Part shown: positions 7,967-31,300 of the stretch, piece by piece | Position numbering within the stretch: the first letter of the stretch is position 1 | How the letters are laid out: the number at the start of each line of letters is the position of its first letter | Assembly: GCA_947629985.1 (NCBI GenBank) | Contig: CANRFV010000001.1 | Location: 49,329 to 113,328 of the forward strand | Length of the DNA: 64,000 nt | From: an uncultured Clostridia bacterium | Lineage (GTDB): Bacteria; Bacillota; Clostridia; Christensenellales; CAG-314 | Direction of reading: 5' to 3' | Notes under the pieces: model-generated | Database searches by the model: none | Told to the model about the DNA's origin: nothing | The model's input: the letters and a program-made list of their open reading frames with translations, nothing else | Translations under genes and position numbers: made by a program

Positions 7967-8249
7967 TTTTGTAATCCTTGACGCTGGTAATAATCTCGTG
8001 TTTGAAAAGTTCTTCAAAATCCGCCAGACGACCGATAGCGTTTGCAAGCTTGACAAGCGAATGTAAGGAAATCTCTCCCGTCTGTTCAAACCTGCGAATT
8101 GAGGAATAAGTAACCCCCGAACATTGCGCAAGCTTTACCTGAGAAAATTTCATTTCCTTTCGTCTCATCCTGAACCGTGCCGCCAAACTGTCTAACGTTG
8201 TTTTTTCTGTCAGCGTGGGGACAAATTCCCCTATATCAAATTTGTTCAT
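7956..8249 (-). CDS. hipB: HipB-like XRE-family HTH antitoxin
   Basis: The 97-aa ORF has an XRE HTH (RMRRKEMKFSQVKLAQCSGVTYSSIRRFEQTGEISL). It lies immediately upstream of hipA and overlaps it. Confidence 0.75.
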   Translation of the reverse strand: MNKFDIGEFVPTLTEKTTLDSLAARFRMRRKEMKFSQVKLAQCSGVTYSSIRRFEQTGEISLHSLVKLANAIGRLADFEELFKHEIITSVKDYKNGR

Positions 8250-8258
8250 AGTGCTAAT

Positions 8259-8287
8259 ATTTTAGCAAAAATTGAATTTAGTGTCAA
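8259..8287 (-). promoter_or_regulatory. Sigma-70-type promoter of hipBA (near-leaderless geometry)
   Basis: The minus strand reads TTGACA - 17 nt - TAAAAT, with only 9 nt and no RBS before the hipB ATG at 8249. Confidence 0.45.
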
Positions 8288-8342
8288 GTTATTGCCAAAA
8301 TATAAACAAAAACATTTTGCTTTACAAATTCACTTCGCACAT

Positions 8343-8367
8343 TAAAGAAAACAGGCAGACACCTGTT
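8343..8367 (-). terminator. Rho-independent terminator after the recombinase genes
   Basis: The minus strand has the stem aacagg / cctgtt (6 bp, 6-nt loop) followed by ttctttaat, 40 nt downstream of the recombinase stop. Confidence 0.5.
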
Positions 8368-8406
8368 CTCTATTTATTATTGTAATATATTACATAACAA
8401 CTAAAT

Positions 8407-10134
8407 TTAAGCTTGTATTCTATATGGAATACTTACATTTTCAGCAAGGCTCAAATTCCGATTCTTAGTCAACATTTCTATTGCGTCTGTAAACTCATCT
8501 TTGAAATTAAACTCAATTCTGACGCTACCATCATGTTCTATATAAATCATCTGTATCAGCTCTTCTATTATACCACGATTTAGACGCGTAATGTTTTGAT
8601 GTTTCTTAAAAGATTCAACAAAGCTGTTTTGCGTCATTGATTCAGGATTTAATTGCGCCAATTCTTCATTTAGCTGGGAAATATTGATTTCAAGTTGCGT
8701 TATCTTTTCGGAATATTCTTTTTTGAAATGAAAATACTGTTCCCTTGTTATTATTTCATTTTTGAAATCGCCGTATAATTCGTTTTGAAACCTGACTAAT
8801 TTCTCTTTCTCCGCCCCGCAAGCGCATATCCCGTTTTTGATCTTAGCAACCTTCCAATCTACAATTGGATTGTTTTTGATTTTTTGCAAAAGAACGTCCA
8901 TTTCAACAGCTATATCAACGTATTTTCGTATGATTGCTATTACGACTTCATTCAATTTATTGACACGAATTGCATGCCTTGAACATTGTTTCCATTGCAA
9001 ATATGAACCGCAAACAAAATAATAAAACGACTTGCCATTCTTTATATATCCGCTTCTTTGCATAGCACGACCACAATCAGCGCATTTAATGTATCCCACA
9101 TAAATTGCGCCGGTAGCCTCACCACTTTCTGAAAGAGTTTCTGCTCCTTTTGCTTGCCAAGTATCTCGCTCAAATCTTTTCTGCGCTTTCTCAAAAGTTT
9201 CTTTATCGATAATAGCTTCGTGTGTTCCTTCTTTAATTATATAGTTTTCCTTTGGAACCGAAACACATTTATGAATTTTGTGACTGATTGTCTGATATGT
9301 TCCTTGTACCATATCGCCTATATACATTCTATTTTTAAGCATACGACGTATAGTTTGAGTAGACCAACCGGTATTTTTCTGCTCATATCTCAATGCCGAA
9401 TTGCTACCTAATCCTTTTCGCTGTTTGTATTCGGTAGGATTAAGTATACCCATTACTTTAAGTTTAAGCGCTATGTTATAGATGCTTACGCCTTCAATAA
9501 ACATACGATAAATCAATCTTACATTCTCGGCGGCTTCTTTATCTATAAGTAGCTTATGGTGATCATTCGGATCTTTTATATATCCATACAAGGCAAATGA
9601 GCCAATATATTCTCCTCTTCTACGCTTTGCGTTAAAAGAACTTTTGATTTTGGAAGAAATATCACGCGCATACTCATCGTTCATTACATTCTTAAAAGAA
9701 ACAGTAGAATTTCTGATTGATTCCGGCTGCTTAAAACTGTCGATATTATCATTTACTGAGATAAATCTCAATTTCAGTAGCGGAAAAACGACTTCAAGAT
9801 ACCGACCTGTTTCATGATAATTTCGTCCAAATCTTGATAAGTCCTTAACGATAACGCAATTTACTTTGCGACTTTTTATATCTTCCAACAGTCTTTTCAT
9901 ATTCGGGCGGTCAAAATCCGTACCCGAAAAACCATCGTCCGTATATACGTCATAAACTTCAATATCCGGATTTTTATCAAGATACCTTTCGATAATTTTA
10001 TGCTGATTTATAATGCTGTCGCTTTCCAACTTATCGCCATCTTCGCGCGATAACCTTAAATATACTCCGCACTTCCACACACTTTGTGCTACATAGTTAA
10101 TTGACGAATACTTACTGTTTCTTCCTGTACTCAT
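8407..10134 (-). CDS. Large serine recombinase (resolvase/invertase N-domain + recombinase domain + zinc ribbon + coiled coil)
   Basis: Catalytic-Ser region CGVYLRLSREDGDKLESDSIINQ and VIVKDLSRFGRNY, a recombinase domain, the zinc ribbon CADCGRAM...YYFVCGSY...CSRH, and a C-terminal coiled coil. Confidence 0.92.
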   Translation of the reverse strand: MSTGRNSKYSSINYVAQSVWKCGVYLRLSREDGDKLESDSIINQHKIIERYLDKNPDIEVYDVYTDDGFSGTDFDRPNMKRLLEDIKSRKVNCVIVKDLSRFGRNYHETGRYLEVVFPLLKLRFISVNDNIDSFKQPESIRNSTVSFKNVMNDEYARDISSKIKSSFNAKRRRGEYIGSFALYGYIKDPNDHHKLLIDKEAAENVRLIYRMFIEGVSIYNIALKLKVMGILNPTEYKQRKGLGSNSALRYEQKNTGWSTQTIRRMLKNRMYIGDMVQGTYQTISHKIHKCVSVPKENYIIKEGTHEAIIDKETFEKAQKRFERDTWQAKGAETLSESGEATGAIYVGYIKCADCGRAMQRSGYIKNGKSFYYFVCGSYLQWKQCSRHAIRVNKLNEVVIAIIRKYVDIAVEMDVLLQKIKNNPIVDWKVAKIKNGICACGAEKEKLVRFQNELYGDFKNEIITREQYFHFKKEYSEKITQLEINISQLNEELAQLNPESMTQNSFVESFKKHQNITRLNRGIIEELIQMIYIEHDGSVRIEFNFKDEFTDAIEMLTKNRNLSLAENVSIPYRIQA

Positions 10135-11873
10135 AGCGCTACCTCTTGATTTATATTTGTCGTAACTTGTAGAAGATTTTCTTGCTCAAACTCATCGAGC
10201 AAATTCCGGTTTATGTTGACATAATCAAGCGCATTCTTGAATGTATCTTGAAACTTAAATATAATTTCGATGCCCTTATTCTCGTGGACATATATAACAT
10301 CAACCAAAGCGATCAATATTTCACGCGTCAGCCTGTCTATGTTTCTATATTTAATAAAATGTTTTACCAATTCAGTTGATTCGTCTATACAATTCTTTTC
10401 TTGCGCCAGCAGTCCGTTTAGTTTATTGATTACGCTCTCTATTGATTTTAATTCCGTCTCATATTTTTCTTTTAACATCAAATATTGCGTTTTAGAAATC
10501 AATGCGTTTTTATAATCGGGATAGAGATCCAACAGTATTCTATTTGTTTTACTTTTTTCATTTTCTTTTTCAACAAGAATTTTCTCCAATTGGGATGCGC
10601 TACTTCTTTTATTTGGTGATTGACTGATTTTTTCGATTAATCTATCTATTTCCACCGCGGCATCAATGTATTTCGATATTACTGTTAAAACGGTTTTTTC
10701 GAGCAAATCTGATCTTACCGTATGTCTGGAACATGCAGCCTTTGTCATATTATCATACGTTTTACAAGTATAATAATGATATTTCTCTCTGAATTTTGCC
10801 CTACTCGCATTTTTCTTCACTAATTGTTTTCCACAATCAGCGCAACGTAAAAAACCTGCAAACAACGATAATTCTTGCGTTTTTGGTGAAACTCGCACAT
10901 CTCTGTTCATGATCCCTTGAATCGCAAAGAAAAGAGATTTATCAATAATTTTCTCATGATGGTTTTCAATTATTACCCATTTGTCCTCGCTTAACATTCT
11001 TACCTTCTCAACCTTATGACTGACCTTTTCATATTTACCTTGGACAAGATCCCCGGTATACATTCTATTAGTCAAAATCTTTCTGACAGTTTGAATGCTC
11101 CACAAGCCGCTATTATTACTTCTATGATAGTTAGAATATTTTTCACTCTTATATTTCGCGGGATTAGGTATTCCCATTTCATTCAACTTAAACGTAATCA
11201 TTCTATAAGATAACCCTGCCGCAAACCACTGAAATATTTGTCTGACTACGTCGGCAGCATCGGGATCAATAACCAATTGTCCTTTTACTGCCGTATCTCT
11301 AACATAGCCATATAAAGCAAAGCCGCAAATATATTCACCGTTTTCACGTTTTGCAGCAAATGTACTGCGAATTTTATTGGAAATATCCCTACAATACTCT
11401 TCATTCATAACATTTTTGAATGAGACGGATATATTGTTCATTGAAGTTGGATATAAAAAACTGTCAATGTTGTCAACCACCGAAATGAATCGAATATCCA
11501 TTACGGGGAAAAATATATCCAAATATTGACCGGCTTCTAAATAGTTTCTGCCAAATCGAGATAAATCCTTTACGATAACGCAATTTATACGTCCCATACG
11601 AATATCATCAATCAATCTCAAAAATTCCGGACGCTCAAAATTGGTTCCTGTATAACCGTCATCGGCATATTCGGAGATAATTTGAATATCAGGGTTTTCT
11701 ACCAAATAATCTTCAATAACAAGTCTTTGATTAAATATGCTATCGCTTTCATATTTATTATCATCGTCTTTATCGCCATCTTCCTTTGAAATACGCAAAT
11801 AAAGCCCTGCCTGCCACCGCTTGGTGGCTGACAAGGCTACATTATCTTTGATATATTTACTTGTGCGCGCCAT
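10131..11873 (-). CDS. Large serine recombinase, second tandem paralogue
   Basis: AGLYLRISKEDGDK...SDSIFNQ, VIVKDLSRFGRNY and CADCGKQL...YYTCKTY...CSRH. I take the start at the ATG at 11873 (MARTSKY), which follows GGAGG. It has a 4-nt overlap with the downstream recombinase. Confidence 0.92.
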   Translation of the reverse strand: MARTSKYIKDNVALSATKRWQAGLYLRISKEDGDKDDDNKYESDSIFNQRLVIEDYLVENPDIQIISEYADDGYTGTNFERPEFLRLIDDIRMGRINCVIVKDLSRFGRNYLEAGQYLDIFFPVMDIRFISVVDNIDSFLYPTSMNNISVSFKNVMNEEYCRDISNKIRSTFAAKRENGEYICGFALYGYVRDTAVKGQLVIDPDAADVVRQIFQWFAAGLSYRMITFKLNEMGIPNPAKYKSEKYSNYHRSNNSGLWSIQTVRKILTNRMYTGDLVQGKYEKVSHKVEKVRMLSEDKWVIIENHHEKIIDKSLFFAIQGIMNRDVRVSPKTQELSLFAGFLRCADCGKQLVKKNASRAKFREKYHYYTCKTYDNMTKAACSRHTVRSDLLEKTVLTVISKYIDAAVEIDRLIEKISQSPNKRSSASQLEKILVEKENEKSKTNRILLDLYPDYKNALISKTQYLMLKEKYETELKSIESVINKLNGLLAQEKNCIDESTELVKHFIKYRNIDRLTREILIALVDVIYVHENKGIEIIFKFQDTFKNALDYVNINRNLLDEFEQENLLQVTTNINQEVAL

Positions 11874-11962
11874 AATTGTACCTCCAAGATTACTTGGCGA
11901 TAGCAATTAAGATGCATTTAACGTTCTTATTTTAGCACTCCACCAAATAAATTTCAAGCCTT

Positions 11963-12217
11963 TTATGAATTTTGAGTAAATATTTTTTCCAAACTTTGTT
12001 GCAATGTTAGCCCCTTATCGTTGAAACTTACCTTTACAGGGATATTCCCCACTTTGAACAGGTATGGATTTCCCAACTGTTCAATAAGCGATAAAACACG
12101 TTCTACAACCGGTCTCTGAGTATCAACGTTTATTGTTTCTATATCTTTAAGTTCTTCAACTTTTGCGTTGCGTATCTTCAACGCTTCATACTGGTTCAAA
12201 CTATTTTTTATCATCAT
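11963..12217 (-). CDS. Small conserved hypothetical protein of the recombination module (from memory resembles DUF6870-type proteins found next to serine recombinases)
   Basis: The 84-aa ORF contains ...ERVLSLIEQLGNPYLFKVGNIPVKVSF.... Its position is directly upstream of the recombinases. The family assignment is recollection only. Confidence 0.45.
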   Translation of the reverse strand: MMIKNSLNQYEALKIRNAKVEELKDIETINVDTQRPVVERVLSLIEQLGNPYLFKVGNIPVKVSFNDKGLTLQQSLEKIFTQNS

Positions 12218-13179: not shown

Positions 13180-15153
13180 TTATGTTACAAGCGCGGCAAT
13201 GCCTCTGACAAGGAACGGTGCGGCGACTATTATTGAGAAAATAATCACGATACCGACAACATAATTTATGAGCATTTTCTTTGCTTTCTCTTTATCTTCG
13301 TTCTTTTGGGCGATTATGATAGCCACACCGATGGCAATACTCCATACTCCTGCTGTTGCAATAAAAACCCAAACCATATATGGGCGATACTGTTCAAATA
13401 AATATTCCACATAGTTTGTTACTTCTTCATATTGATTGCCGAGTTCTTGCGTGTAGCTGTCGCCACAAACCGAGCAAGTATAGGTTCTTTTCGTGTTCCC
13501 GTTGCGACTTTGCACATCGGAAATCATGTAGTTATGTCCTTTTGCCGATATTTTTGTTTCATACGAATGTCCACAGGTGTCGCATACGCTTCGCATAATG
13601 CCCTCTTGCGTACACGTTGCTTCTCGGATGACACTATTTGTGTAATCATGTCCCGTTGGCAAACTTCCGTCTGACTCTGATTTTTCAAAATTACAGACTT
13701 GACAATGGTATACTGTTTTTCCGCTCTCTTTACAACTCGCAGGAACTTCAACTGTTTCAAAATTGTGTCCAAGCGGCTGTGTTTCATTGTCCCTGTAATT
13801 ATTACCACATCGACTGCACTCATGCAGTGTATAGCCGCCTTCCGTGCAAGTTGCCGTCGATGTTCTCGTAACATAGTTGTGCCCCGTTGCTTCCGTCAAG
13901 CCACTTTGATATTCATCTCCACATCGGCTGCAAGTATAGAGCGTATAACCACTCTCTGTACATTTCGGCGCAATGACAGCTGCCCTGTAATTATGACCGA
14001 GTGCTTTCGATACTGTATCTTGATAGATATAACCGCATTTCGTACAAGTATAAATTGTATAACCATCTTCGGTGCAGGTTGCCGCCGTTGTTCGAGTTGT
14101 AAAACTATGTCCCGTCCCATTTTTGTCAATTATTTCGGTATAACTATAATAACACCGAGAACAAGTATAAACCAACTTTTCACCTGTACAAGTTGCCGAT
14201 GTTTCGACAGTATAACTATGCCCTAATGGAGAAAATTTACCGTCCACATAACTCGTCTTGCAACGGGAACAAACATGAGTGGTATATCCCCCTGTTGTAC
14301 AAGTCGGAGCGGTTGTTGTGCTGTCATAACTATGTCCGAGAGCCGGCGATTCATTACTTTTATATGTATATCCGCATCGCGTACATTTATTTGTAGTGTA
14401 TCCGCCAGATGTACAAGTAGGTGATGTCGTTGTTGCGCTGTAACTATGTCCCAATGCAGATGCCGTATTTTCTGTGTAGTAATGTCCGCAGGTGCATCTG
14501 TACGTTATGTAACCTTCTTCTGTACAAGTGGGTTTTGTCACGGTCGAGGTGTAACTGTGAATATGGTAGTCGATTTTGAATGAGAAAGTACATTCGATTT
14601 GTTCAATAAAATGAAGAGTACGAATAGAACTTTCTTCTTCCCAAACACTTACACCTAAAAATGACACATAATAAGTACCGTCACTTAAAACAGCCATTAT
14701 TTCTTTTGAATTTGTTGTACTTGTCTGCGCAACAACATTTCCAGATGCGTTTTTGATTGTGAAAGTGTTTTTCGCGAAGTCGGACTTTACATTGATAGTA
14801 ACTTCTCTCGATTTTATTGTTCCGCCCTGTTGAAGTGTCCCTGTTTCAGTTCCGTAATAACTTCCGTAAATTTCAAACTCTACAACACATTGTTTATCAT
14901 TCCTTCCACAATCAACGAGATCGGATTTCAATACATTCGATTTTTCCGAATCAAGACGAGGTGTCGGATTAGCATTTCCCATAACACCACCACTATAATG
15001 CTTATAATCAAAATATATTTTATAACGTGGCGTCTCTGCTGCATAAGCTGATGTCGTAGCGTTCCCGGTCAAAGCAAGCGCTATCAATATAAGCAGACAT
15101 ACTCCGAATAGTAACGCTACGCTCAACATAGCCCCTTTTGTTTTTGTACTCAT
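13180..15153 (-). CDS. Secreted His/Cys-repeat array protein ending in a VirB2-like two-helix membrane module
   Basis: Signal peptide (MLSVALLFGVCLLILIALALTGNATTSAYA), a beta-rich N-domain and about 10 tandem ~37-aa GH-x-Y...C-T-x2-GY...C-x2-CG units. The C-terminal 70 aa are homologous to the product of 19082-19378. It has an ATGA overlap with virB4. Confidence 0.85.
   Translation of the reverse strand: MSTKTKGAMLSVALLFGVCLLILIALALTGNATTSAYAAETPRYKIYFDYKHYSGGVMGNANPTPRLDSEKSNVLKSDLVDCGRNDKQCVVEFEIYGSYYGTETGTLQQGGTIKSREVTINVKSDFAKNTFTIKNASGNVVAQTSTTNSKEIMAVLSDGTYYVSFLGVSVWEEESSIRTLHFIEQIECTFSFKIDYHIHSYTSTVTKPTCTEEGYITYRCTCGHYYTENTASALGHSYSATTTSPTCTSGGYTTNKCTRCGYTYKSNESPALGHSYDSTTTAPTCTTGGYTTHVCSRCKTSYVDGKFSPLGHSYTVETSATCTGEKLVYTCSRCYYSYTEIIDKNGTGHSFTTRTTAATCTEDGYTIYTCTKCGYIYQDTVSKALGHNYRAAVIAPKCTESGYTLYTCSRCGDEYQSGLTEATGHNYVTRTSTATCTEGGYTLHECSRCGNNYRDNETQPLGHNFETVEVPASCKESGKTVYHCQVCNFEKSESDGSLPTGHDYTNSVIREATCTQEGIMRSVCDTCGHSYETKISAKGHNYMISDVQSRNGNTKRTYTCSVCGDSYTQELGNQYEEVTNYVEYLFEQYRPYMVWVFIATAGVWSIAIGVAIIIAQKNEDKEKAKKMLINYVVGIVIIFSIIVAAPFLVRGIAALVT
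13440..14565 (-). repeat. About 10 tandem coding repeats (~111 nt / ~37 aa) of an H-x(10)-C-x(10)-C-x2-C module
   Basis: Example units: GHSYSATTTSPTCTSGGYTTNKCTRCGYTYKSNESPAL, GHSFTTRTTAATCTEDGYTIYTCTKCGYIYQDTVSKAL and GHNYVTRTSTATCTEGGYTLHECSRCGNNYRDNETQPL. Confidence 0.85.
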
Positions 15154-17789
15154 TGGTTATCCTCCTCTTTTCGCCCCTCATCAAACAAATCTTTCGTGTA
15201 CTTACCCGCCTTTATGCAGATACAGGCTCTAAGTTCAGTCGAGCCCACGAAAAACGCTTGCCCCGTAACAGCTGAGATTATCATCCGTTGCTCGTCATCG
15301 TTGAAACTGTCGCCAGCTCTGTAAACGTCTAAGACATCTTTCATGTCGGGAGCAGCAAGCTTGAAGATGAAGTTGTACTGACTGTTTTTTAGAATGGTTG
15401 AAGTCTTGTTGCGAAGCTCTTCATTTGCATTCCAATCCGCGATGTTCTGCGTTGCGGGGATGAACGCACCGCCGTACTTTCTGATTCGCTTATTCATCGA
15501 ATAAAAGAAGTCAAGAGCAATCGGGAACTTCGCATCTATAAACAGGTGCGCTTCGTCCACGACGATCATTGTGTGCAGATTTGCCCCATTTTTGTTGCGT
15601 TCTCTGGCGTTGATAACTTCCTGTTCAATGAAGCGGAACACAAGTAGCATTTGTGCATTAGCGACGACGTTATTTTTGTTCGCAAAGAGCGATTGAAAGT
15701 CGAAGTCAATGAGATTTGCGTTGACTTGCAAGGTAGACGGTGCGTTCCAAATGTCGCTGTAACGTCCCGTTACAAACTTCTGCAAGTAAAGCTCCGCCGT
15801 TCGCATATCTCTCTTTGTCATCTCGTCCATTTCCGCCGTATTTTTCGATTTCAGCGTGTCCATAAGGTCTGAAAACAATGGAAAGTAGTCCGCAGGAAAA
15901 TGCGAGCAATCCGTATTTTCGGTGATCCCCATTCTTTCATACGTTTCCACCGTCAGGTTATTGATAAGTTCGATAACATCTGTGGGCGCATCCGCAAGTA
16001 CAATTTTGAAGAAACTCTCCAACATCTTCAAGTGAGTGTTGAATGTTACTTTGCTATCCGCAGGCGTTCCGTCCTCTGTCAAAATCTTGTAGATATGGAA
16101 TGGATTGATTCTCCCTTCTCTCGCATTACCAACATTGATGATGTTACCGTACAGATTTCTTGTCAGCGCAAGATACTCCGCTTCGGGGTCAAGGACAATT
16201 ACTCTCGTCCCGTTCGCCCATTCGTGAAGAATAAGGTTTTTCAGGAAGAATGATTTGCCGCTTCCCGACTTCCCTATAATCATCGCGTTCGAGTTCTGAT
16301 ACAAGTTCCCTCGCTTCCAAAGATTGAAGATGAACGGATAGCCGTTGGTCTTGTTCTCTCCGAGCAGGATGCCGCCCTCGTCCATGACGAAAGTACGAAC
16401 AAACGGGAACGCCGCGGCAAGCGACGAAGAATTGATACCCCGTTCTTGATTTTTGAGCGTAGACACGGGAGACACCGCCGCCGATTTGAAGCCTTCGATT
16501 TGCAAACCATAGAGTGTAGAGGGACGGAAATTGCCTGTCAGCATAGCCCGCCTCGTCGCCTTTTTGTAATTATCGTCTTTCAGATAGTTGTATGCCGTAA
16601 TGGTCAGCGTAACGTCAAACAGGCTTTCGTTCTCCGTTTGCAAGGCGTCGAGAAGTGTGTTCATCGTTTCTTGGTGGATTTCAGCACTATTCGCATCGCT
16701 CGCCTTGTCCGAAATGATTTGCTTGGTCTGCATCTCTCCGATAACCTTGTCGATACGTCGTATGGCTTTCATTTTGTCAACGGGCTTGACGTGCATTACT
16801 ACTTTTGTATTAGGAATGTTGAACAAGTCTGCTCCCCATGCGTTCTTGACACGAAGCGGATAGTCCGATACCGCGAACGTCGCCACTTCCGTACCGTCGA
16901 TTTGATACTTGTTGCCGCGAAATATGACTTCTTTCGGCTTGACCCATTCAATGAGTTCTTCATCGGACAGATCCTTGATTTCTCTCTCGTCGAAGTTTCG
17001 GGAGAAACTGTATTTCAGGAACACTGCCGCATCTCTCTTGCCAAGGATTTTCGTGTTCAGTCCGCACTTTGCGATTTCTGCCGCGACATTGATTGCCGTA
17101 CTTTCGAGATCGAGTTCGTTTCTGCCGTACACGACTATGTAGTAGTCCGAAAGATACTGCTTGCGGATATTGTTGAGTTTATCAATACGGTCAATTCTTT
17201 CTCGTAGGATACCCGTTTTGATTTCCTTGATACCATTTTCATCGTCATTTTCCGCAACGTCCGAAAGTCTGCCGAAAAGTTCTTTGGCAAAGCCGTCTAA
17301 GTTCACGGGACGATCTATCTTCACGATGTCCGCACTTTGGTTTTGATCGAGGATTTTCAGCGCATTTGCAAAGTAGTTGATGTCTATGTTCTGTTGCACC
17401 ACATCCTCGATACCAAAATTCTTCTGTCCGACCTTTATTACCCGTCCATACATACCGCCACCGTAGCCGAGCAAGCCGTTGTCTTTGATTTCTTTCAGGT
17501 CAATAAGCGCATTGACATTTTCTTTTGCGTTTGTTGCCTTGCTTGTATATCTCTTCTTCGAAAACAGGAACTTGACGTTCTCGAAGATAAATGTGTAGAA
17601 GATGCCGTCGGGCGTAGGCATAAACATTACAACTGCGCACAGTCCCATAATGATTGCAAATGCCCAACTTCCTGCTGTGATTGCAATGAAAATGATTGCG
17701 AACACAACAAGGGCAACAATGACGTCTACCATTGAGTAACACTTCCACACGGTATTCTTCACCTTGACTTTTTTAGGAATGATTCTCAT
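15150..17789 (-). CDS. virB4: VirB4/TcpF/PrgJ-family conjugative ATPase with an N-terminal VirB3-like membrane segment
   Basis: The 879-aa ORF has two N-terminal TM helices (VIVALVVFAIIFIAITAGSWAFAIIMGLCAVVMF), Walker A IIGKSGSGKSFFLKN and Walker B MIVVDEAHLF. Confidence 0.92.
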   Translation of the reverse strand: MRIIPKKVKVKNTVWKCYSMVDVIVALVVFAIIFIAITAGSWAFAIIMGLCAVVMFMPTPDGIFYTFIFENVKFLFSKKRYTSKATNAKENVNALIDLKEIKDNGLLGYGGGMYGRVIKVGQKNFGIEDVVQQNIDINYFANALKILDQNQSADIVKIDRPVNLDGFAKELFGRLSDVAENDDENGIKEIKTGILRERIDRIDKLNNIRKQYLSDYYIVVYGRNELDLESTAINVAAEIAKCGLNTKILGKRDAAVFLKYSFSRNFDEREIKDLSDEELIEWVKPKEVIFRGNKYQIDGTEVATFAVSDYPLRVKNAWGADLFNIPNTKVVMHVKPVDKMKAIRRIDKVIGEMQTKQIISDKASDANSAEIHQETMNTLLDALQTENESLFDVTLTITAYNYLKDDNYKKATRRAMLTGNFRPSTLYGLQIEGFKSAAVSPVSTLKNQERGINSSSLAAAFPFVRTFVMDEGGILLGENKTNGYPFIFNLWKRGNLYQNSNAMIIGKSGSGKSFFLKNLILHEWANGTRVIVLDPEAEYLALTRNLYGNIINVGNAREGRINPFHIYKILTEDGTPADSKVTFNTHLKMLESFFKIVLADAPTDVIELINNLTVETYERMGITENTDCSHFPADYFPLFSDLMDTLKSKNTAEMDEMTKRDMRTAELYLQKFVTGRYSDIWNAPSTLQVNANLIDFDFQSLFANKNNVVANAQMLLVFRFIEQEVINARERNKNGANLHTMIVVDEAHLFIDAKFPIALDFFYSMNKRIRKYGGAFIPATQNIADWNANEELRNKTSTILKNSQYNFIFKLAAPDMKDVLDVYRAGDSFNDDEQRMIISAVTGQAFFVGSTELRACICIKAGKYTKDLFDEGRKEEDNQ

Positions 17790-19024
17790 TCACTACCTCC
17801 TTCTCCTGCGCTCTCGTCTGTTCCACTATCTGACGATTCGCTTGATGAGCCATTTTCGCTTTCCGTGTATTTATCTCCGCTTTCGTCTGATGAATCGCTG
17901 CTATCCGACCCGCTCGAACCGCCGTCGCCATCCGAGTGCTTATGGTGTCTGGCGGCGTGAGCGATACCTTTAATGCCTTTCGCCGCTAAGCCTATCGTCA
18001 TACCACCAATTATTCGACCACCGTAAAATGCGCTTCTGAGGAAACTGCCTCCCGCATGCATATCGTCTGCTTGACCGAATAGCCTTGCAAATAATGTTTG
18101 ACCGGCAGGAATAACCATTGCACCACCTATAATCATGAATATCGTGAACATCGCGTTCCCGAAGCCACTCACGTTCGGCAAACTCATCTGCGAAATGAAT
18201 GGTAGTATCAGGACAAAGATGTTCACCGACAGAACCGCACCGTAAGCAAGAATGATTTTTGTAACAAACTGCTCTCGCCAATTTTTGAACCTTGCCCCAT
18301 CGTCGAGTGCAAGCGTTGACATAGACACGGGCATACAGAAGTATAGGAAAATGATTTCATATACTCTCTTTGCAAGGTTGAGAGTAGCCACGATCAGAGC
18401 AATGCACAGTGCTACACCTGCAATCAATGCAGGCAAGTACATAAACGTATTCGGGTTGACCATACCATTACACTTCCACGATGTGGGCCATATTCCAAAG
18501 AGTGCGGCATTATAGCCGCCGAAGATGTCGCTTACCGAGTAGGAAGTGATATTGATTCCATTGATCGAATGTCCTTTGAGCCAATCTCCCACACAGGCAT
18601 CGAATATAGCGTTTGAAAGTTTTGTTGTGTTCCCAATTTGGAAAATCTCTGCAAGCAGTTGCAACAATGCTCCCGAAATCATAATGCCGAGAAATACAAC
18701 AGCAAGCATCGCCATTGTGCCGAGAAGCGCAAGGAAAAACTTTCCGACTATTGTTGAAATATTTTTGTTGTTGGCTATCATATTCTTCACGAGAGCGACA
18801 ATGGTAAATATACAAGTTAATCCAACGGCGAGAATGAATATACACCAAAAGATTGTTCCAACGGTCGAATCTCCAATAAGAAACTCAATGATATTTATGT
18901 GCTGTCCGTGATAATTGATAGAAGCCACACCCGAAATCGCGGAGAATATTTCCATTGTTCCATCGATGAGTTGCAACATCCATAAGAATAATTGCAATCC
19001 GATCTCTTGAAAAAATATTAACAT
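17786..19024 (-). CDS. VirB6/TrbL-like polytopic channel protein with a Ser/Asp/Gly-rich C-terminal tail
   Basis: The 412-aa ORF has at least 6 TM helices and a low-complexity acidic tail (GGSSGSDSSDSSDESGD...). It sits between the pilin-like gene and virB4, with a 4-nt overlap with virB4. Confidence 0.6.
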   Translation of the reverse strand: MLIFFQEIGLQLFLWMLQLIDGTMEIFSAISGVASINYHGQHINIIEFLIGDSTVGTIFWCIFILAVGLTCIFTIVALVKNMIANNKNISTIVGKFFLALLGTMAMLAVVFLGIMISGALLQLLAEIFQIGNTTKLSNAIFDACVGDWLKGHSINGINITSYSVSDIFGGYNAALFGIWPTSWKCNGMVNPNTFMYLPALIAGVALCIALIVATLNLAKRVYEIIFLYFCMPVSMSTLALDDGARFKNWREQFVTKIILAYGAVLSVNIFVLILPFISQMSLPNVSGFGNAMFTIFMIIGGAMVIPAGQTLFARLFGQADDMHAGGSFLRSAFYGGRIIGGMTIGLAAKGIKGIAHAARHHKHSDGDGGSSGSDSSDSSDESGDKYTESENGSSSESSDSGTDESAGEGGSE

Positions 19025-19081: not shown

Positions 19082-19378
19082 TTAAGCACCTACCCAAGCG
19101 GATAAACCGTTGATAAGAAGCGGCGCGCCCATAGCGACGACAAAGATTATCACTATACCGATTATTAAATTCTTGACCATATCGCGGGCGTTAATCTTTT
19201 CCTCATTACGGTGTGCAATTGCAATTTTTATGCCAATATACGCACCCCAAATGACTACTACCGCCGCGAGTGCGAGAACAATATAGATCCAAAATGAATC
19301 CATAAGAGCCTTGATTTTTTCTACGATTTGCGAAAGACTGCCATTCAGTCCTTCATCTGCTGCCAAAAGATTTATCAT
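19082..19378 (-). CDS. VirB2/TrbC-like (pilin-type) small two-TM protein
   Basis: The 98-aa ORF has two hydrophobic helices separated by a charged loop (IVLALAAVVVIWGAYIGIKIAIAHRNEEKINARDMVKNLIIGIVIIFVVAMGAPLLINGLSAWVGA). Its architecture, its C-terminal G-A-P-x-L-I motif and its position before the VirB6-like gene all resemble VirB2/TrbC. Confidence 0.55.
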   Translation of the reverse strand: MINLLAADEGLNGSLSQIVEKIKALMDSFWIYIVLALAAVVVIWGAYIGIKIAIAHRNEEKINARDMVKNLIIGIVIIFVVAMGAPLLINGLSAWVGA

Positions 19379-19403: not shown

Positions 19404-21047
19404 TCAATTTTTGTTGTTCTTTTTCTTCTTGATGATGAAATATGCCGCTATGCCTCCGCCCGCAAGGACAATAAGCACGATGAACAGAATGATTGACGTT
19501 ACACCATTATTCTTGTTGCCACCCTGCACTTCTCCCTCGTCGGGATTTACAGGTTCATTCGGTTCATCAGTATCGCCGGGGTTTTCGGGCGTTACGGACG
19601 AATCAGGCTTGTCCTGCTCATCGGGAGTGTCGGGATTGTTTGGATTGCTTTCATCGGGGTTTACGGGAGTATCAGGCTTGTCCTGCTGTTCAGGCGGATT
19701 TTGTTCATTCGGTTTTTCCTCTTGATCGGGTTTGTCTTGCTCGTCAGGGGGTGTTGTAGGTTGATCGGAAACAGTGGGCGCTTGCTCGCTAATACCGCCC
19801 GATGTGAGCCAAAACGTTTTGAGTTCGATCCCCTTTTCATCTACGATTTTCACTTCATACATTGCGTTCAGATCGGAATAAAATACCTGTCCATACGCAT
19901 TGACTTCAAATGGCACAAAGTTCGTTCCGTCTTTCGAGCCAAGAACACTCAAACCACTACCGCGGACATTACCGCAGTTACAAACGCGAAGCACAATAAA
20001 GAATCTCTCTGCTGTATTATCTTGTACATAGAGTTGATATGAGTGTACATGTGGCTCTGTGGGTTCGACGGGTTCGGGAATATAACCTGTATCGCCGCTT
20101 GTTACGATGTCGGAGATAAAGCTATAATTACATTTGATGCAAATATGTCGTGTATACCCTACGCTTTCGGGCGTTGCTTCTACCATAACGTGCAAATACT
20201 CATGTCCCGTAGGCACTTCATAGTCCGATACAAATCGGTCGTTGCAGACGGAACAGATATGCTCCGTGTATCCGTAACTCACACAGGATGCAGGCGTAGT
20301 CGTCAAAACATAATCATGTCCAAGTTTATCTGTGTAATCACCTATGTAGCTATCTTCGCAATTCACACATGTATAGGTCGTATAACCGCCCGTTGTACAA
20401 GTGGGTTCTACAACAGCTTTTCCGTATTCGTGTTCAAACGCATCCATGAAATTGTCATTGTAGAAATATCCGCAGACCGAGCAGGTGTGCTTCGTGTAGC
20501 CCTGTGTAGTACAAGTCGCAGGATAGGATTCTTCTTCATAAAGATGTCCCGTCTCACTTTGATAGCTGTCCGAATACTCGTAGCCGCATGTAGTACAGAA
20601 ATGAGTAGTATATCCTTTGTGAGTACAACTTGCAGGCACAACAATCTCCACGAACCGGTGTCCGAGTTCCGCCGATGTCATGACTTCATATTGGTCGCCA
20701 CACTTTTGACAAGAATAACGAATACATCCTTTTGTTGTACAAGTCGCAGGAATCGTCAGTTCAGTATAATCGTGCCCACTCGCCTTAGTATAATTATCCT
20801 GTTTTGTTTCACCGCAAATAGAACATGTATAAAGCGTATAGCCTTGTTCCGTACACTTCGCAGGAACGATTTGCGTTTCTTCAAATTGATGTTTACAATT
20901 CGATTGTGCTACTGATAGCATATATTGCGGCGATTCGATTCCCGCAGCATTTGCATTAGACGGTGCGTTGCCAAGCGCAAATGCTATGCATACAAACAAC
21001 ACTGAAATAAGTATGCCATACAATAGTCGTCTTTTCAGTTTTACCAT
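19404..21047 (-). CDS. Membrane-anchored His/Cys-repeat array ectoprotein with a Pro/Asp/Glu-rich stalk
   Basis: Signal peptide, about 8 units of the same H...C...CxxC repeat (e.g. GHDYTELTIPATCTTKGCIRYSCQKCGDQYEV), a beta-rich domain and a ~90-aa linker (PPDEQDKPDQEEKPNEQNPPEQQDKPDTPVNPD...). The C-terminus is a TM segment plus the KKKKNNKN stop-transfer sequence. Confidence 0.85.
   Translation of the reverse strand: MVKLKRRLLYGILISVLFVCIAFALGNAPSNANAAGIESPQYMLSVAQSNCKHQFEETQIVPAKCTEQGYTLYTCSICGETKQDNYTKASGHDYTELTIPATCTTKGCIRYSCQKCGDQYEVMTSAELGHRFVEIVVPASCTHKGYTTHFCTTCGYEYSDSYQSETGHLYEEESYPATCTTQGYTKHTCSVCGYFYNDNFMDAFEHEYGKAVVEPTCTTGGYTTYTCVNCEDSYIGDYTDKLGHDYVLTTTPASCVSYGYTEHICSVCNDRFVSDYEVPTGHEYLHVMVEATPESVGYTRHICIKCNYSFISDIVTSGDTGYIPEPVEPTEPHVHSYQLYVQDNTAERFFIVLRVCNCGNVRGSGLSVLGSKDGTNFVPFEVNAYGQVFYSDLNAMYEVKIVDEKGIELKTFWLTSGGISEQAPTVSDQPTTPPDEQDKPDQEEKPNEQNPPEQQDKPDTPVNPDESNPNNPDTPDEQDKPDSSVTPENPGDTDEPNEPVNPDEGEVQGGNKNNGVTSIILFIVLIVLAGGGIAAYFIIKKKKNNKN
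20110..20895 (-). repeat. About 8 tandem coding repeats of the H-C-CxxC module
   Basis: Units include KHQFEETQIVPAKCTEQGYTLYTCSICGETKQDNYTKAS, GHRFVEIVVPASCTHKGYTTHFCTTCGYEYSDSYQSET and GHLYEEESYPATCTTQGYTKHTCSVCGYFYNDNFMDAF. Confidence 0.85.
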
Positions 21048-21061
21048 TGTTTTCTCCTTTT

Positions 21062-23290
21062 TTATTTATTTTTAGCTGCCGCTTGCAAATAATTAAGTTT
21101 CGCAAGCGCCGTTTTAAGATATTTGATGAATTCGCGAAGTTTCTGTTCTATACTTCCCTCGTAATTGTCTGAGATAGCATATAGGATCATCTGCTTATCT
21201 TCGAGTTTCGCTTGCTTCAATGCGATAGCGTCTTCTTCCGCAAGCACATCGCATATTTTCAGAACTTTTGCGTGGATTTCATCGACAATTCTGTCCCATT
21301 CATCATCCAGTTTTTTAAGACGTTCCACTTCTTGCTCTTTGTCAATCTCTTCTTGCGCCGCTTCTTCTTGTTCGCGGCGCTCAATGCCTTCAAGCATCAT
21401 CTCTTCCTCTTTTGCTTGATTACCACCGAGAATGTCAAATACATACTCTCGCTTGTCGAACAGTCGCGCTTCTCTCTTTCCGATATCCGCTTTGCCTGCC
21501 GCGAAATACACGTCTTTGAGTTCATAGGACGGCGTAAACTTCGTCCAAATGGGTTCATATCCACGAACGGACACGATGGCATCTCCCTTTTCGTCGCCGT
21601 TAAGCCGTTCAAGCATACCGACCGTGATAAGCGGTTGATTGCTTGCGCCGGTGTTGCTTGACGCAGGATTTTCGGCGTTTGTGTTGACCGAGAAGTTTTT
21701 GATTTTCTTCTGTCCGCAAAGGTCGCTGAACTCTTTTCTCGTTTCGGGATCGTCCGAGCCAATGAATATTTTTACATTGCAATTAGTTTTCAAAATATCC
21801 CCGATGTCCCTGCCGTACTTCGCCGTAAGTTGACTGAACGATTGCAGAACGAACAAATAGCGTATTCCTCTCGAACGTCCGACCGTAACCATGCCTTCAA
21901 TGTATTCGAACTTCGGCAAATTGCCGAACTCATCAAGAATGAAGTATGTTTTTCGTTTTAGGATCGCCGTCTCGGTCTGCTTGCGCCGCAGGTTGAGATT
22001 CGCCTTTTCGACCAACTCCTTGTACATTTGCGTTACAAACAGCGTTACAAAACGATGTCTTGTAAAGCGTTCATCAGGGACGATGATAAATACCGCATTC
22101 GGTTGTTCGTCCATGTTTACGATATCAAGGTCGTTTGCGCTCGTCATTGACAGAATGCCGTCGTCCGAAAGTTGCTGTATGTAACTGTTGACTTCGGACA
22201 GGTAGCTCGTGAGCGTTTTATCCGATGTAATAAGCACAGTATTGACAAGTCCCCTTACTTTGGAATACTCATCTCTCCCTTCAAGCAGATAGGTTTTGAG
22301 TGCCGTCGTATCCTCCGAACAATACTTTGTTATGTTATGGTAGACGTTGAAGAGTTGCAGTTGCTTCTCATCCATTTTGCCTTTTATAACGTCCTCGCAG
22401 AACGCAAGCACAAGTCCGAATATAAGGTTTCGTGCGCCCTCTTCCCAAGTGGGTTGGTCTTTGTTCTGCACGGGACACAAGGTGTACACCAAGTCCATTG
22501 CGTTTTCGTAGATTTCGTCTTTGAGTTCTTGCACCCTTGTCCGCGCATCTCTATGGGACAGGAACATCTCTTCGCCCGCATAATACTTGCCGTCTTTTTG
22601 AATGAGGTTGTTTTCAAGTTCCTTTACCATACGGATGCGGCGAAGTAATACTTCCATAGGATTCCACCTTGCCGACGAATACGGCTCTCGCAGGTCGAGG
22701 ACAGAGATTTTGTACCCTTCCGATTCAAGTTGTTTAGCGTGTTTCTCATAGAGTTCCTTCTTGGGGTCAGCGATGACGATTGACGGCTTTCCTTTGCTTC
22801 GTCCGAGAATTGCAATATTCTGATCTACAAATCCCGTGGTCTTGCCGCTTCCCGTTGTACCAACTATAAGCGCATGAAGTTGGCTTGTTGAAATTATTTC
22901 CACGTCGCCCTTTTTCGTCTTTTCCGCGCCGATCACGATTTCATCATCGTGTTCCTTTACGCCGTTCCAAGTCGTGACCGTAAACTCTTTCATCTTTCGG
23001 AGTTTCTTTGTCGTCAGCCATTCGGTATCTTCGAGGTCGTTCTCTCGCATCGCTATGTTCTGTGCGTCAATACGATACATAAACAAGTAGCCGATAAGCA
23101 ACAAGCCGTTCACGACGCCTACTAAGAGCCAATAGTTCCTATTGCCGAAAATGCCGCTAATGTCTTTCCCGAACAGCGAGAAGATAAACGCTATGAGAAC
23201 AGCGACGAACACGAACAGGAACAGCCATACGAACAATCCCGCCTTGCGTGATTTTCGTTTCTTATGTTTGAATGCCTCGTTTCTATTCAT
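21062..23290 (-). CDS. Type IV coupling protein (VirD4/TraG/TcpA family)
   Basis: Two N-terminal TM helices, Walker A VGTTGSGKTTGFV, Walker B YFILDEFGNLP, and a C-terminal acidic coiled-coil extension. Confidence 0.92.
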   Translation of the reverse strand: MNRNEAFKHKKRKSRKAGLFVWLFLFVFVAVLIAFIFSLFGKDISGIFGNRNYWLLVGVVNGLLLIGYLFMYRIDAQNIAMRENDLEDTEWLTTKKLRKMKEFTVTTWNGVKEHDDEIVIGAEKTKKGDVEIISTSQLHALIVGTTGSGKTTGFVDQNIAILGRSKGKPSIVIADPKKELYEKHAKQLESEGYKISVLDLREPYSSARWNPMEVLLRRIRMVKELENNLIQKDGKYYAGEEMFLSHRDARTRVQELKDEIYENAMDLVYTLCPVQNKDQPTWEEGARNLIFGLVLAFCEDVIKGKMDEKQLQLFNVYHNITKYCSEDTTALKTYLLEGRDEYSKVRGLVNTVLITSDKTLTSYLSEVNSYIQQLSDDGILSMTSANDLDIVNMDEQPNAVFIIVPDERFTRHRFVTLFVTQMYKELVEKANLNLRRKQTETAILKRKTYFILDEFGNLPKFEYIEGMVTVGRSRGIRYLFVLQSFSQLTAKYGRDIGDILKTNCNVKIFIGSDDPETRKEFSDLCGQKKIKNFSVNTNAENPASSNTGASNQPLITVGMLERLNGDEKGDAIVSVRGYEPIWTKFTPSYELKDVYFAAGKADIGKREARLFDKREYVFDILGGNQAKEEEMMLEGIERREQEEAAQEEIDKEQEVERLKKLDDEWDRIVDEIHAKVLKICDVLAEEDAIALKQAKLEDKQMILYAISDNYEGSIEQKLREFIKYLKTALAKLNYLQAAAKNK

Positions 23291-24610
23291 TCAGTCTTTG
23301 TAATCCTCCTCTTTCTTCTTTTTTTCATTTTGTTTTCTCTCGCGCTCCATTTCATCTTCAATGTCTTGCAGACGGTGAGAAAAATCGCGTTCGAGCAATT
23401 CACTTTCCTGTCCCAAAGTTGCAAAGAATTTTCTACAAGCACGGTTGACCATTTTGCGTGATATACTGAGCCGACGTTTCAAAGCCGTATCGTTTGGCTT
23501 TGTGATTTTGCTCTTGTATAATTTCGGCTTTATATACTTCGCAAATTTAAGAACAAGATTTCCCTGCCGTCGCTTGTAATCTTCTTCCAACTCCTCAATG
23601 ATGTGGATGTTCTTCTCGTCGATTTCGTTATGATATTTGGGCAAGTCGTTTTCCATAGCCTCCGCCGAAACGCTTTGGTTGGAAAAGGCGAAAGGCTTTG
23701 TGCCGCAAATATTTTGGATTTTATTTTTCCTTTTCTCAACCGCCTGCTGAAATTTTATGTTTGCCACCCGCGCCCGCCCATTACAAGACAACAACATTCG
23801 CACTATCCTGTCCACCCTATCGCGATACGGCATCATATCCTTGCTTCCATAGGTCAATCGTCCCGTACTCGGCAAATCCTTTGCAAGAGCAATGATTTCC
23901 TTTTTTACATCTTCATCGAAAGACACCACTTGTTTTATGCCCATTAACTCGCGCAACTCTTTGATCGCTTTGTCGCGGGCTTTATACACTCGGTCTTTGT
24001 CACCGTCCAAAAACAATGCTGTTCGGACGAACAAATTGTTTATCGCTTTCTTTTCGATTTTGCCCCTGCGCCGATATTGCAGATTGCCGTTCTTGTCCTT
24101 GAACTTTGGCTCTTTCTCCCAAAAGACAAAGTGAATATGCAAGTGTTCTGGTCTATCCATGTGCAGAGCACACATAAGGTCAACGTTATCCTTGCTGAGT
24201 TTTGCATCCGAAAAGAATTGCGGAAACGTTCTCTTTACAAGTTCAATACACTTTTCGGGCGTGTCGATCTTGTGCGATTTCTCGGCATTGATTGAAATGA
24301 AACCGTGCCATATATTTCCCTCATTCTTTTCAAGTCGCGCCTTCATAGCCGCCACTTCATCTTTGGGTATAACGCCTTTGTCGTTGAACACTCCCGTACT
24401 TTTTTGCAGATACTCGAACGCAGTCAGCTTCTTTGTCTTTTTGCCAGTCTGCTTTTCTTCCGTGGTTATGTAATCGAAGATGTTTTTGCCGCCCGACATA
24501 TCGTAGAATGCCCGCTCGCCTGCGTGTTTTTCTCGCTCTTCTGCGGTCGCCGATTTCGGCAAACTGTATGGTGTATATTGAATATTGATTACAACCGGTT
24601 GATTGCTCAC
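23291..24610 (-). CDS. Relaxase, MobL-like
   Basis: The 439-aa ORF has an N-terminal Tyr-containing region (ERAFYDMSGGKNIFDYI) and the histidine cluster ALHMDRPEHLHIHFVFWE (HxD...H.H.H type). It lies immediately downstream of a small accessory gene and upstream of the coupling protein. Confidence 0.7.
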   Translation of the reverse strand: MSNQPVVINIQYTPYSLPKSATAEEREKHAGERAFYDMSGGKNIFDYITTEEKQTGKKTKKLTAFEYLQKSTGVFNDKGVIPKDEVAAMKARLEKNEGNIWHGFISINAEKSHKIDTPEKCIELVKRTFPQFFSDAKLSKDNVDLMCALHMDRPEHLHIHFVFWEKEPKFKDKNGNLQYRRRGKIEKKAINNLFVRTALFLDGDKDRVYKARDKAIKELRELMGIKQVVSFDEDVKKEIIALAKDLPSTGRLTYGSKDMMPYRDRVDRIVRMLLSCNGRARVANIKFQQAVEKRKNKIQNICGTKPFAFSNQSVSAEAMENDLPKYHNEIDEKNIHIIEELEEDYKRRQGNLVLKFAKYIKPKLYKSKITKPNDTALKRRLSISRKMVNRACRKFFATLGQESELLERDFSHRLQDIEDEMERERKQNEKKKKEEDYKD

Positions 24611-30419: not shown

Positions 30420-31300
30420 TTACACTTTACCGTTACCGCCACCCGATGATTTGGGCGCGGAATTGCTTGCTTTGGGCGGATTATATGCCGGGGACGATTT
30501 CACGGCTTTCATCGCGGTGTACTCATAGTAACTTTGCGGTTTATCGGGCCGATAGAGTCCGCTCGTCGCAAAGATGCGGAGCATCTGATCTTTGTCGTGT
30601 CTGCACCAAAACGCAAGCTGATTCATAAGACTCATGTCGCTGTTGCTGTGATTATTTCTAATGTCCTCGCCGTTATAAAGCCTTTTGAATGTGTCGCCGT
30701 TTTTGGCACTCATAGCCCTGTCGAGAACCTCTCTGTCGTACATCACTGACAAACCGTCGATACCTGCGCCTACGCCTTTCCACTCGGTGCGCTTCTCGCA
30801 TTTTTGCGAAATAAACTCGCGCATACCCGTCTTATCGAGGTCTTTGAGTTCTTTGCTCGTAACGCTCGTTAAAGGGTTGCCTGTCATAGCGATGAAGTGT
30901 TTGTCTTGGTAGAACTCCAAATCACCGTCTTTCGAGAACGCTCTCACATCGAGGTTCTGCATCTTGCCGAAAACGTGGAGACCCTTACCGCTAATCGAAC
31001 GCTCGCTGTACGTCCCGTTGCCGAAACCCGCCGTTGTCGCACCAACCGAATTGATATTGCCTACCTCGTCAATACAGTCGTCCACGTCGATGCAGACGAT
31101 ATTGTCCTGCCCGTCGAGAGCGTAGGCAAGTGCAACGCCACCATTCTCTTTGGCGTACTGACAAGCCGAGTCAAAGTCCGTCCACGTTGAGGCATCGTTG
31201 CTCTTTGCCGCCTTGCCTGTATGAACATCTATGAGATACTTGTCAAATCGTCCCGTGTCCTTGTTCTCGCTCGTGCGGACGATGACCCAATTCGGTTTGG
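30420..31300 (-). other. Domain: archaeo-eukaryotic primase-polymerase (PrimPol) + PriCT-like helical tail (aa ~3820-4114)
   Basis: The DxD motif is NIVCIDVDDC (about 31074-31094) and the sGxGxH motif is SISGKGLHVFG (about 30966-30992). The tail is NGDTFKRLYNGE...SNSDMSLMNQLAFWCRHDKDQMLRIFATSGLYR. Confidence 0.75.

Follow-up and report, generated by a model that had tools for sequence, protein, structure and literature searches.

How the DNA transfer machines of monoderm bacteria reach and hold a recipient cell is poorly understood. Reviews describe Gram-positive systems as lacking pilins and as using LPxTG adhesins (PMC12857230, PMC12102498), and sortase-anchored conjugative adhesins have mostly been studied in lactic acid bacteria (PMC12857230). 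PrgB, or aggregation substance, and other LPxTG adhesins of enterococcal and lactococcal plasmids are stalked surface proteins, encoded by conjugative elements, that promote mating-pair formation (PMC12857230; PMC10588982). In Bacillus subtilis, the operon of plasmid pLS20 encodes p34 (TIE), a thioester-domain adhesin that is not sortase anchored and on which efficient mating depends, above all in liquid (PMC8092201). In Mycoplasma agalactiae, the integrative conjugative element (ICE) ICEA cannot transfer without its surface lipoprotein CDS14, which appears to initiate the contact between donor and recipient (PMC6030558). Here, we describe HC547, a 547-amino-acid (aa) protein encoded in a 64,000-nucleotide stretch of DNA (the window) from an uncultured Clostridia bacterium (assembly GCA_947629985.1, contig CANRFV010000001.1), within an ICE of roughly 35 kb. 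The family of elements to which it belongs departs from the picture drawn in the reviews, as two repeat-array proteins are encoded, one of which (HC657) is fused to a pilin-like hairpin, while the other (HC547) sits on a plain membrane helix. In our estimation, the chances are even that the conjugation apparatus of the ICE includes HC547 as a dedicated surface component with a role in donor-recipient contact or mating-pair formation.

HC547 is an exported type I membrane protein that is anchored at its C terminus and made from the transfer operon. A signal peptide, the putative cleavage site of which was assigned from an A-x-A motif, is followed by a tandem array of seven units, a short connector, a beta-sandwich module, an acidic tether, a single transmembrane helix, and a Lys-rich tail (Table 1). 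The repeated element, here called the H/C unit, has the full pattern H-x10/11-C-x9-CxxC in six of its seven copies, and the CxxC knuckles (aa 75, 113, 151, 189, 227, 265, and 303) are spaced by exactly 38 aa. Matches to the looser pattern H-x(8-14)-C-x(8-12)-CxxC number six in HC547, whereas 5000 shuffled sequences had 0.045 on average and never more than 2. In the seventh unit, Ala291 replaces the middle Cys, and unit 1 opens with C51-x-H53. A preliminary description of this DNA had recognized the H-C-CxxC array, the beta-rich domain, the low-complexity linker, the single transmembrane segment, and the Lys stop-transfer sequence, as well as the recurrence of the unit in a second protein (HC657), and all of these are indeed present. 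It had also put the number of units at about eight, and here the unit type holds but the count falls to seven, the last without the middle Cys. The beta-sandwich module opens with HxH...CxC, and it is this stretch, not a 38-aa unit, that looks like an eighth copy.

HC547 had no significant family in Pfam or NCBIfam scans. At an E value of ≤1, Pfam returned only PF14283 and PF17713, both far under their cut-offs, and neither library returned a known adhesin, polymer adhesin (GbpC/antigen I/II-like), thioester, or Cna domain. Moreover, no type IV secretion system (T4SS) pilin match (PF18895 or Mbov_0395) was obtained for HC547 itself, which has one C-terminal transmembrane helix and no two-helix hairpin, and an LPxTG-like sorting motif was not found with the regular expression [LIVS]P.[TAS]G. 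The layout of the protein would place everything between the signal peptide and the membrane helix at the cell surface.

The gene for HC547 is embedded in the transfer operon. It comes first after the coupling-protein gene, just as the preliminary description had it, with the stop codon of the coupling protein 14 nt ahead of the HC547 start and a gap of 25 nt between the HC547 stop codon and the next gene, pil98. The operon reads, all on the minus strand, MobL relaxase, coupling protein, HC547, pil98, VirB6-like protein, VirB4, and HC657, with junctions that are short or overlapping. The presence of VirB4, a VirD4 coupling protein, a VirB6-like protein, and a relaxase in one operon marks the system as a T4SS of the Firmicutes/Tenericutes type (MPF-FATA-like). 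When one genome per species was searched with an alignment built from four coupling proteins, 65 loci were recovered, mostly from Christensenellales/Christensenellaceae or unclassified Clostridia and in some cases from metagenome-assembled genomes (MAGs) labeled "Bacilli." They came from the guts of rabbits, mice, humans, and ruminants, and a rabbit-gut MAG matched best, at 95% identity. In 38 of these loci the coupling protein is complete and is followed by 1.8 kb or more of sequence, and in all 38 the next gene is an HC547 homolog. An otherwise identical element lacking the gene, which had been named beforehand as the observation that would speak against a role in mating, was not encountered. 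The order of the operon was kept across the genome loci, with one to three copies of pil98, and the operon order of the window was also found in L004, L005, and L006. Finally, an identical HC547 protein was found on four metagenome contigs, where its neighbors were likewise unchanged.

Around 15 further loci, in which the coupling protein is cut at approximately aa 505, were considered as elements that might lack HC547, a reading that was rejected. They are not exceptions, because in L050 an inserted foreign element interrupts the coupling-protein gene and pushes the remaining operon out of the flanking sequence that was retrieved. We note that the gene is cut at aa ~505 to 509 in about 15 genomes (L050; also L045, L048, L051, L053 to L056, and L061). 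In L050 (10001 to 20046), the foreign element that comes after the break carries a MobA/VirD2 relaxase, a large serine recombinase (DUF4368), IS200, IS1595, and an aminoglycoside-2''-adenylyltransferase, and the coupling-protein gene looks like a recurrent site-specific insertion target of another mobile element.

The relatives of HC547 fall into a large group and a small one. A search with the whole protein gave more than 2,228 matches among the 8,000 candidates scored, most of which share the H/C unit only and carry it next to dockerin, cohesin, SLH, LRR_5, Big_2, GH20, GH25, and CAP domains. The C-terminal module is rare (27 clusters at an E value of ≤0.001 among 1.84 billion representatives), and true orthologs were recognized by it. 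Orthologs share a signal peptide, five to eight units, one to three copies of the module, an acidic Pro-rich tether, a transmembrane helix, and a Lys-rich tail, and the proteins from the genome loci have seven units in 18 cases, six in 16, eight in 3, and five in 3. The last unit usually lacks the middle Cys, with Ala291 retained in 26 of 34 orthologs. HC547 and HC657 are the fastest-evolving genes of the operon (Table 1), which fits exposed surface proteins. Inside HC547, median identity is 44% in the array, 29% in the module, 28% in the tether, and 41% in the anchor. Among the relatives, we also note P0121 (1071 aa), in which a run of Cys/Asp/His-rich sequence occupies the N terminus and eight tandem HxH...CxC beta-sandwich modules follow the unit array. 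Two BFVD entries from gut phage-assigned contigs, A0A8S5QLF9 and A0A8S5SUG5, also combine the H/C array with SLH or LRR domains (E values of 1.7e-20 and 3e-5).

How the H/C units are held together may be explained by metal. In 34 distinct orthologs, the 32 candidate ligand positions are 99% conserved, compared to 44% for other ectodomain positions, and from the pattern of Cys and His residues, the units probably bind a metal, likely zinc. AlphaFold2 (AF2) run on the ortholog alignment for aa 35 to 420 of HC547 predicts an all-beta ectodomain, with a mean predicted local distance difference test (pLDDT) score of 79.9 and a predicted template modeling score (pTM) of 0.33, and each 38-aa unit is modeled as three strands. 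The C-terminal module alone is predicted at a pLDDT of 91.5 and a pTM of 0.79, and the Pro/Glu connector (model residues 285 to 298) falls below a pLDDT of 50. On the AF2 strand map, the His lies just ahead of strand 1 and the CxxC at the turn between strands 2 and 3, such that both are at one shared end of the unit, and each of the seven CxxC motifs ends strand 2 of its own unit. The middle Cys, in contrast, is in the turn between strands 1 and 2, at the opposite end and beside the start of the following unit. We infer that the middle Cys of unit n-1 joins the His and CxxC of unit n in a metal site that bridges the two neighbors, because four ligands then result at every site. A bridging site would also account for the extra invariant C51 found two residues before H53 in unit 1, for the absence of the middle Cys from the final unit, and for the HxH...CxC site, complete in itself, with which the module opens after the flexible connector.

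The ends of other arrays behave likewise. In 160 arrays from 122 proteins, a Cys or His at position His-2 is found in 55 of the 160 first units and in 19 of 853 later units, and the middle Cys is absent from 78 of the 160 last units and from 16 of the 853 others, a pattern that fits complete CHCC sites. A site made of the His, Cys, and CxxC of one unit was rejected, as unit 1 would have five ligands and unit 7 three and, moreover, as the strand map sets the middle Cys opposite the His and the knuckle. Through bridging sites, neighboring units would be stapled together as a stiff rod, and seven units would extend for roughly 20 nm when estimated from strands of about 7 residues.

Known structures offered little to compare. 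By sequence, HC547 had no match in the PDB, and a profile built from 72 units found only the rubredoxin/C2H2 metal knuckle YxCxxCGxxY (E values of 0.004 to 0.02). In Foldseek searches of the PDB, the whole ectodomain model had no meaningful match (template modeling [TM] score of ≤0.19; root mean square deviation of 20 to 60 Å), and the C-terminal module matched only generic Ig/FN3-like sandwiches (E value of ≥0.06; TM score of ≤0.48), including expansin domain 2, cytokine receptors, and S-layer Sap domains, from which no functional assignment followed. We found neither a Pfam or NCBIfam model nor a solved structure or paper that covers the H/C unit, and the literature on the H/C unit, on CD1107, and on conjugation in Christensenellaceae yielded nothing specific.

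The array and the tether both vary in length between orthologs, and their repeats were compared as DNA and as protein. The HC547 units are 18 to 45% identical to one another and their DNA copies are 61 to 70% identical, and Tandem Repeats Finder (TRF) detects no array. Between orthologs, units of the same index are 56% identical, compared to 36% between units within one protein, and thus the units are old and individualized rather than parts of a recently homogenized, rapidly variable stalk. Unit copy number still spans five to eight across the family. Periscope-type variable stalks, in comparison, have tandem repeats that are near identical at the DNA level, and the HC547 units are not of that kind. 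The tether is rich in P (20), D (14), E (13), Q (9), and N (9), has only 4 K, and contains PDEQDKPD twice and PEQQDKPD once. The preliminary description had proposed that the linker is encoded by imperfect short repeats (19510 to 19790) that could vary in length, but neither TRF nor a dispersed-repeat search found a true tandem array there. TRF reported only a 9-nt unit in 2.1 copies, and the linker DNA holds three dispersed copies of ~41 nt, two of which match the reference copy at 80% and 61% identity. Exact direct repeats there reach 17 nt at most, and the two copies of the longest lie 69 nt apart. Tether length nonetheless spreads widely between orthologs, from about 19 to 199 aa in the genome loci, and while slippage-prone DNA repeats are not supported, the variation in length is real and follows element subclades. 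Fully extended, the tether of HC547 could reach up to about 30 nm.

How HC547 might act in conjugation can be pictured from these parts. Sec would export the protein, the one C-terminal helix and the Lys-rich tail would keep it in the membrane of the donor, and the 92-aa acidic Pro-rich tether would serve as a flexible spacer across the envelope. Outside the tether would come the Ig-like module and then the seven three-stranded 38-aa units, with a Cys-His-Cys-Cys metal site, probably of zinc, stapling each junction between units into a stiff rod. Produced together with the channel proteins, the rod may make or stabilize the contact between donor and recipient, and HC547 would probably work beside HC657, itself anchored by a pilin-like hairpin. 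A contact or adhesin function is plausible from the operon context, and we favor it; CDS14 in ICEA and the pLS20 adhesin are precedents.

Several observations weigh against a contact role. HC547 has no binding domain of known function, and as more than 2,000 unrelated surface proteins share the H/C unit, it looks more like a general stalk element than a module that binds a ligand. The strict conservation of the gene would suit a structural part of the channel equally well as an adhesin. The pTM of the whole ectodomain means that the relative orientation of the units is not confidently predicted, although a low value is expected because the chain is elongated. Moreover, 3 of 40 orthologs have a lipobox-like N terminus, which, if used, would tether both ends of the protein. 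Finally, we found no experiment on any member of the HC547 family in the literature.

The foremost alternative draws on the partner protein. HC657 has a signal peptide, an N-terminal beta domain, about 10 H/C units, and a C-terminal hairpin of two transmembrane helices. In line with the pattern of array ends described above, its array begins with HIH and its last unit is without the middle Cys. The final 88 residues are paralogous to pil98 (33% identity; E value of 1e-14). Orthologs of HC657 range from 578 to 1169 aa and always follow VirB4. No VirB1-like wall hydrolase and no VirB8-like protein were found by Pfam in the element (window positions 8407 to 43769), and the transfer module seems to consist of just the coupling protein, VirB4, the VirB6-like protein, one or more pilin-like proteins, and the two array proteins. 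Perhaps HC547 and HC657 form with pil98 and the VirB6-like protein a fixed conduit or fiber for DNA that spans or protrudes from the envelope and does more than adhere. The two array proteins always occur together with one to three pilin-like genes, the C terminus of HC657 is itself pilin-like, the individualized units would fit fixed, position-specific interfaces, and the extracellular part of a system with neither VirB1-like nor VirB8-like proteins needs other proteins. The pilin-family matches of pil98 and HC657, however, are below the curated cut-offs (21.5 to 22.8 bits versus 26.6 and 28.2 bits versus 40), and a part of the channel would be expected to evolve more slowly. Furthermore, HC547 and HC657 diverge in a loosely coupled way (59/40 in L058, 50/58 in L015, and 50/40 in L009), and reviews deny VirB2 pilins and pili to Gram-positive systems (PMC12857230, PMC12102498). 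We regard such a conduit as unlikely. A bolder form, in which the two array proteins and the pilin-like paralogs build a metal-stapled extracellular fiber or conduit as the monoderm counterpart of the conjugative pilus, seems to us quite unlikely; HC547 would then be a membrane-tethered shaft or docking partner and not a simple adhesin.

The pilin-like genes also vary in number and size. Two or three lie in tandem between the HC547 and VirB6-like genes in L026, L029 to L031, L033, L035, L036, L040, L043, L044, and L062 to L064, and some of the pilin-like proteins are enlarged to 133 to 281 aa.

Alternatively, HC547 might be a surface or entry exclusion protein that marks element-bearing cells and blocks redundant transfer. 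Fast-evolving, membrane-anchored surface proteins encoded in transfer operons are typical of exclusion determinants (PrgA, YddJ, and TraS type), and HC547 is all of these: fast evolving, surface exposed, membrane anchored, and encoded in a transfer operon. Exclusion genes, however, are usually dispensable and patchily distributed, while HC547 is conserved in all 38 elements, and known exclusion lipoproteins are small, while the 547-aa rod far exceeds them. Exclusion is thus a very unlikely function for HC547 in our view. That HC547 is hitchhiking cargo that serves the host, as in attachment to mucus, plant fiber, or other cells, is most improbable of all, since although the H/C unit is frequent in host surface proteins with dockerin, SLH, LRR, Big_2, and glycoside hydrolase modules and the array is also found in proteins of gut phage contigs, the gene is closely packed between those for the coupling protein and the pilin-like protein, keeps that position in every one of the elements, and encodes a C-terminal module confined to the HC547 family.

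The surroundings of the operon identify the element as an ICE. Around the operon are two large serine recombinase genes (8407 to 11906) and genes for DNA methylases, ArdC, and a sigma-like protein. A 4114-aa open reading frame is found at 30420 to 42764, and in related elements its position is held by a giant protein of the helicase/ResIII/DUF3849 type. The flanks of the element are ordinary chromosomal genes. We note that the VirB6-like protein has a C-terminal tail of ~65 aa (aa ~345 to 412) rich in Ser, Asp, Gly, and Glu (HHKHSDGDGGSSGSDSSDSSDESGD...), that a HipA-like kinase gene (6872 to 8131, minus strand) adjoins the two serine recombinase genes, and that G+C content is 0.35 over 8 to 12 kb (8001 to 12000), compared to about 0.44 elsewhere in the window. 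A chromosomal gene (48901 to 51528, minus strand) encodes an 875-aa surface protein with another His/Cys-rich tandem repeat, GHKxVCxxxGCGYE ... KFECEQCEYE (Pfam DUF7838; E value of 1.8e-9), together with Big_2 and LRR_5 domains, and thus the host uses other types of Cys/His repeat outside the cell too.

Table 1. Transfer operon and parts of HC547 in the window, with median protein identities
Feature	Position	Strand	Details	Median identity to window (28 complete loci)
MobL-type relaxase	23291..24610	-	PF18555, 39.3 bits (cut-off, 28.5)	58%
VirD4-type coupling protein	21062..23290	-	742 aa; PF02534, E 6e-48; stop codon 21062-21064	75%
Shine-Dalgarno sequence AGGAG	21054..21058	-	7 nt upstream of HC547 ATG; read directly from sequence	
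HC547, whole open reading frame	19404..21047	-	547 aa + stop; ATG start	45%
HC547 signal peptide, aa 1-34	20946..21047	-	KLKRR, hydrophobic aa 8-26, ANA↓AG	
HC547 array of seven 38-aa H/C units, aa 51-318	20094..20897	-		
HC547 short Pro/Glu connector, aa 319-332	20052..20093	-	Low pLDDT in AF2 model	
HC547 family-specific beta-sandwich module, aa 333-418	19794..20051	-	Own H333-x-H335 ... C356-x-C358 site	
HC547 acidic Pro/Asp/Glu/Gln/Asn tether, aa 419-510	19518..19793	-	92 aa	
HC547 single transmembrane helix, aa 515-539	19431..19505	-	From hydrophobicity; conserved LxxxLxVLAAGG motif	
HC547 cytoplasmic tail KKKKNNKN, aa 540-547	19407..19430	-	Lys-rich tail in nearly all 40 listed orthologs	
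pil98, two-transmembrane pilin-like protein	19082..19378	-	98 aa; PF18895 and Mbov_0395 family, both under cut-offs	85%
VirB6-like polytopic membrane protein	17786..19024	-	NCBIfam MMCAP2_0566, 173.8 bits (cut-off, 90)	69%
VirB4-like ATPase	15150..17789	-	879 aa; PF19044, DUF87	79%
HC657, second (partner) array protein	13180..15153	-	657 aa; H/C units as in HC547	43%

Elements of this type are common in strictly anaerobic Clostridia from the guts of humans, mice, rabbits, and ruminants. The H/C unit, with more than 2,000 matches, is among the most widespread unmodeled building blocks of clostridial surface proteins, and metal sites between units, if true, would explain rigid extracellular stalks in anaerobes.

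How HC547 relates to the described contact proteins is a matter of partial likeness. The preliminary description compared its position to that of aggregation-substance or adhesin genes, but the analogy is loose, because to our knowledge neither prgB of pCF10 nor traO of pIP501 is the first gene after the coupling protein. Proteins of the PrgB type have an LPxTG motif and a polymer adhesin domain, whereas HC547 has neither and is held by the membrane rather than by the wall. CDS14 and HC547 are both ICE-encoded, membrane-anchored surface proteins, and the channel proteins of the two ICEs are related: those of the window match families defined on Mycoplasma ICEs, among them MMCAP2_0566, whose cut-off the VirB6-like protein passes. 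CDS14, however, has an N-terminal lipid anchor where HC547 has a C-terminal transmembrane helix, and we know of no H/C unit array in CDS14. The p34 adhesin of pLS20 is operon encoded and anchored without sortase, as is HC547, but p34 has an N-terminal class II thioester domain and, after it, Cna-type domains, while Pfam and NCBIfam find neither in HC547, for which AF2 gives three-stranded repeats and an Ig-like module. CD1107-like proteins (PF14283, formerly DUF4366) of clostridial conjugative transposons are likewise built of a signal peptide, an extracellular domain, a low-complexity linker, a C-terminal transmembrane helix, and a basic tail, but the match to HC547 reaches only 15.4 bits against a cut-off of 26 and covers no more than positions 109 to 157 of the 158 in the profile (the anchor), and the ectodomains are unrelated. 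In its candidate metal sites, HC547 is reminiscent of rubredoxin-type and zinc-ribbon proteins, with a Y-x-C-x-x-C-G-x-x-Y knuckle at a beta-hairpin turn and four conserved Cys/His ligands per site, but the sites of HC547 are extracellular, occur in tandem (7 + 1 per chain), and are apparently built from two neighboring units. Ultimately, HC547 would resemble the monoderm surface contact proteins CDS14, pLS20 p34, and PrgB in its action, yet it belongs to none of their families.

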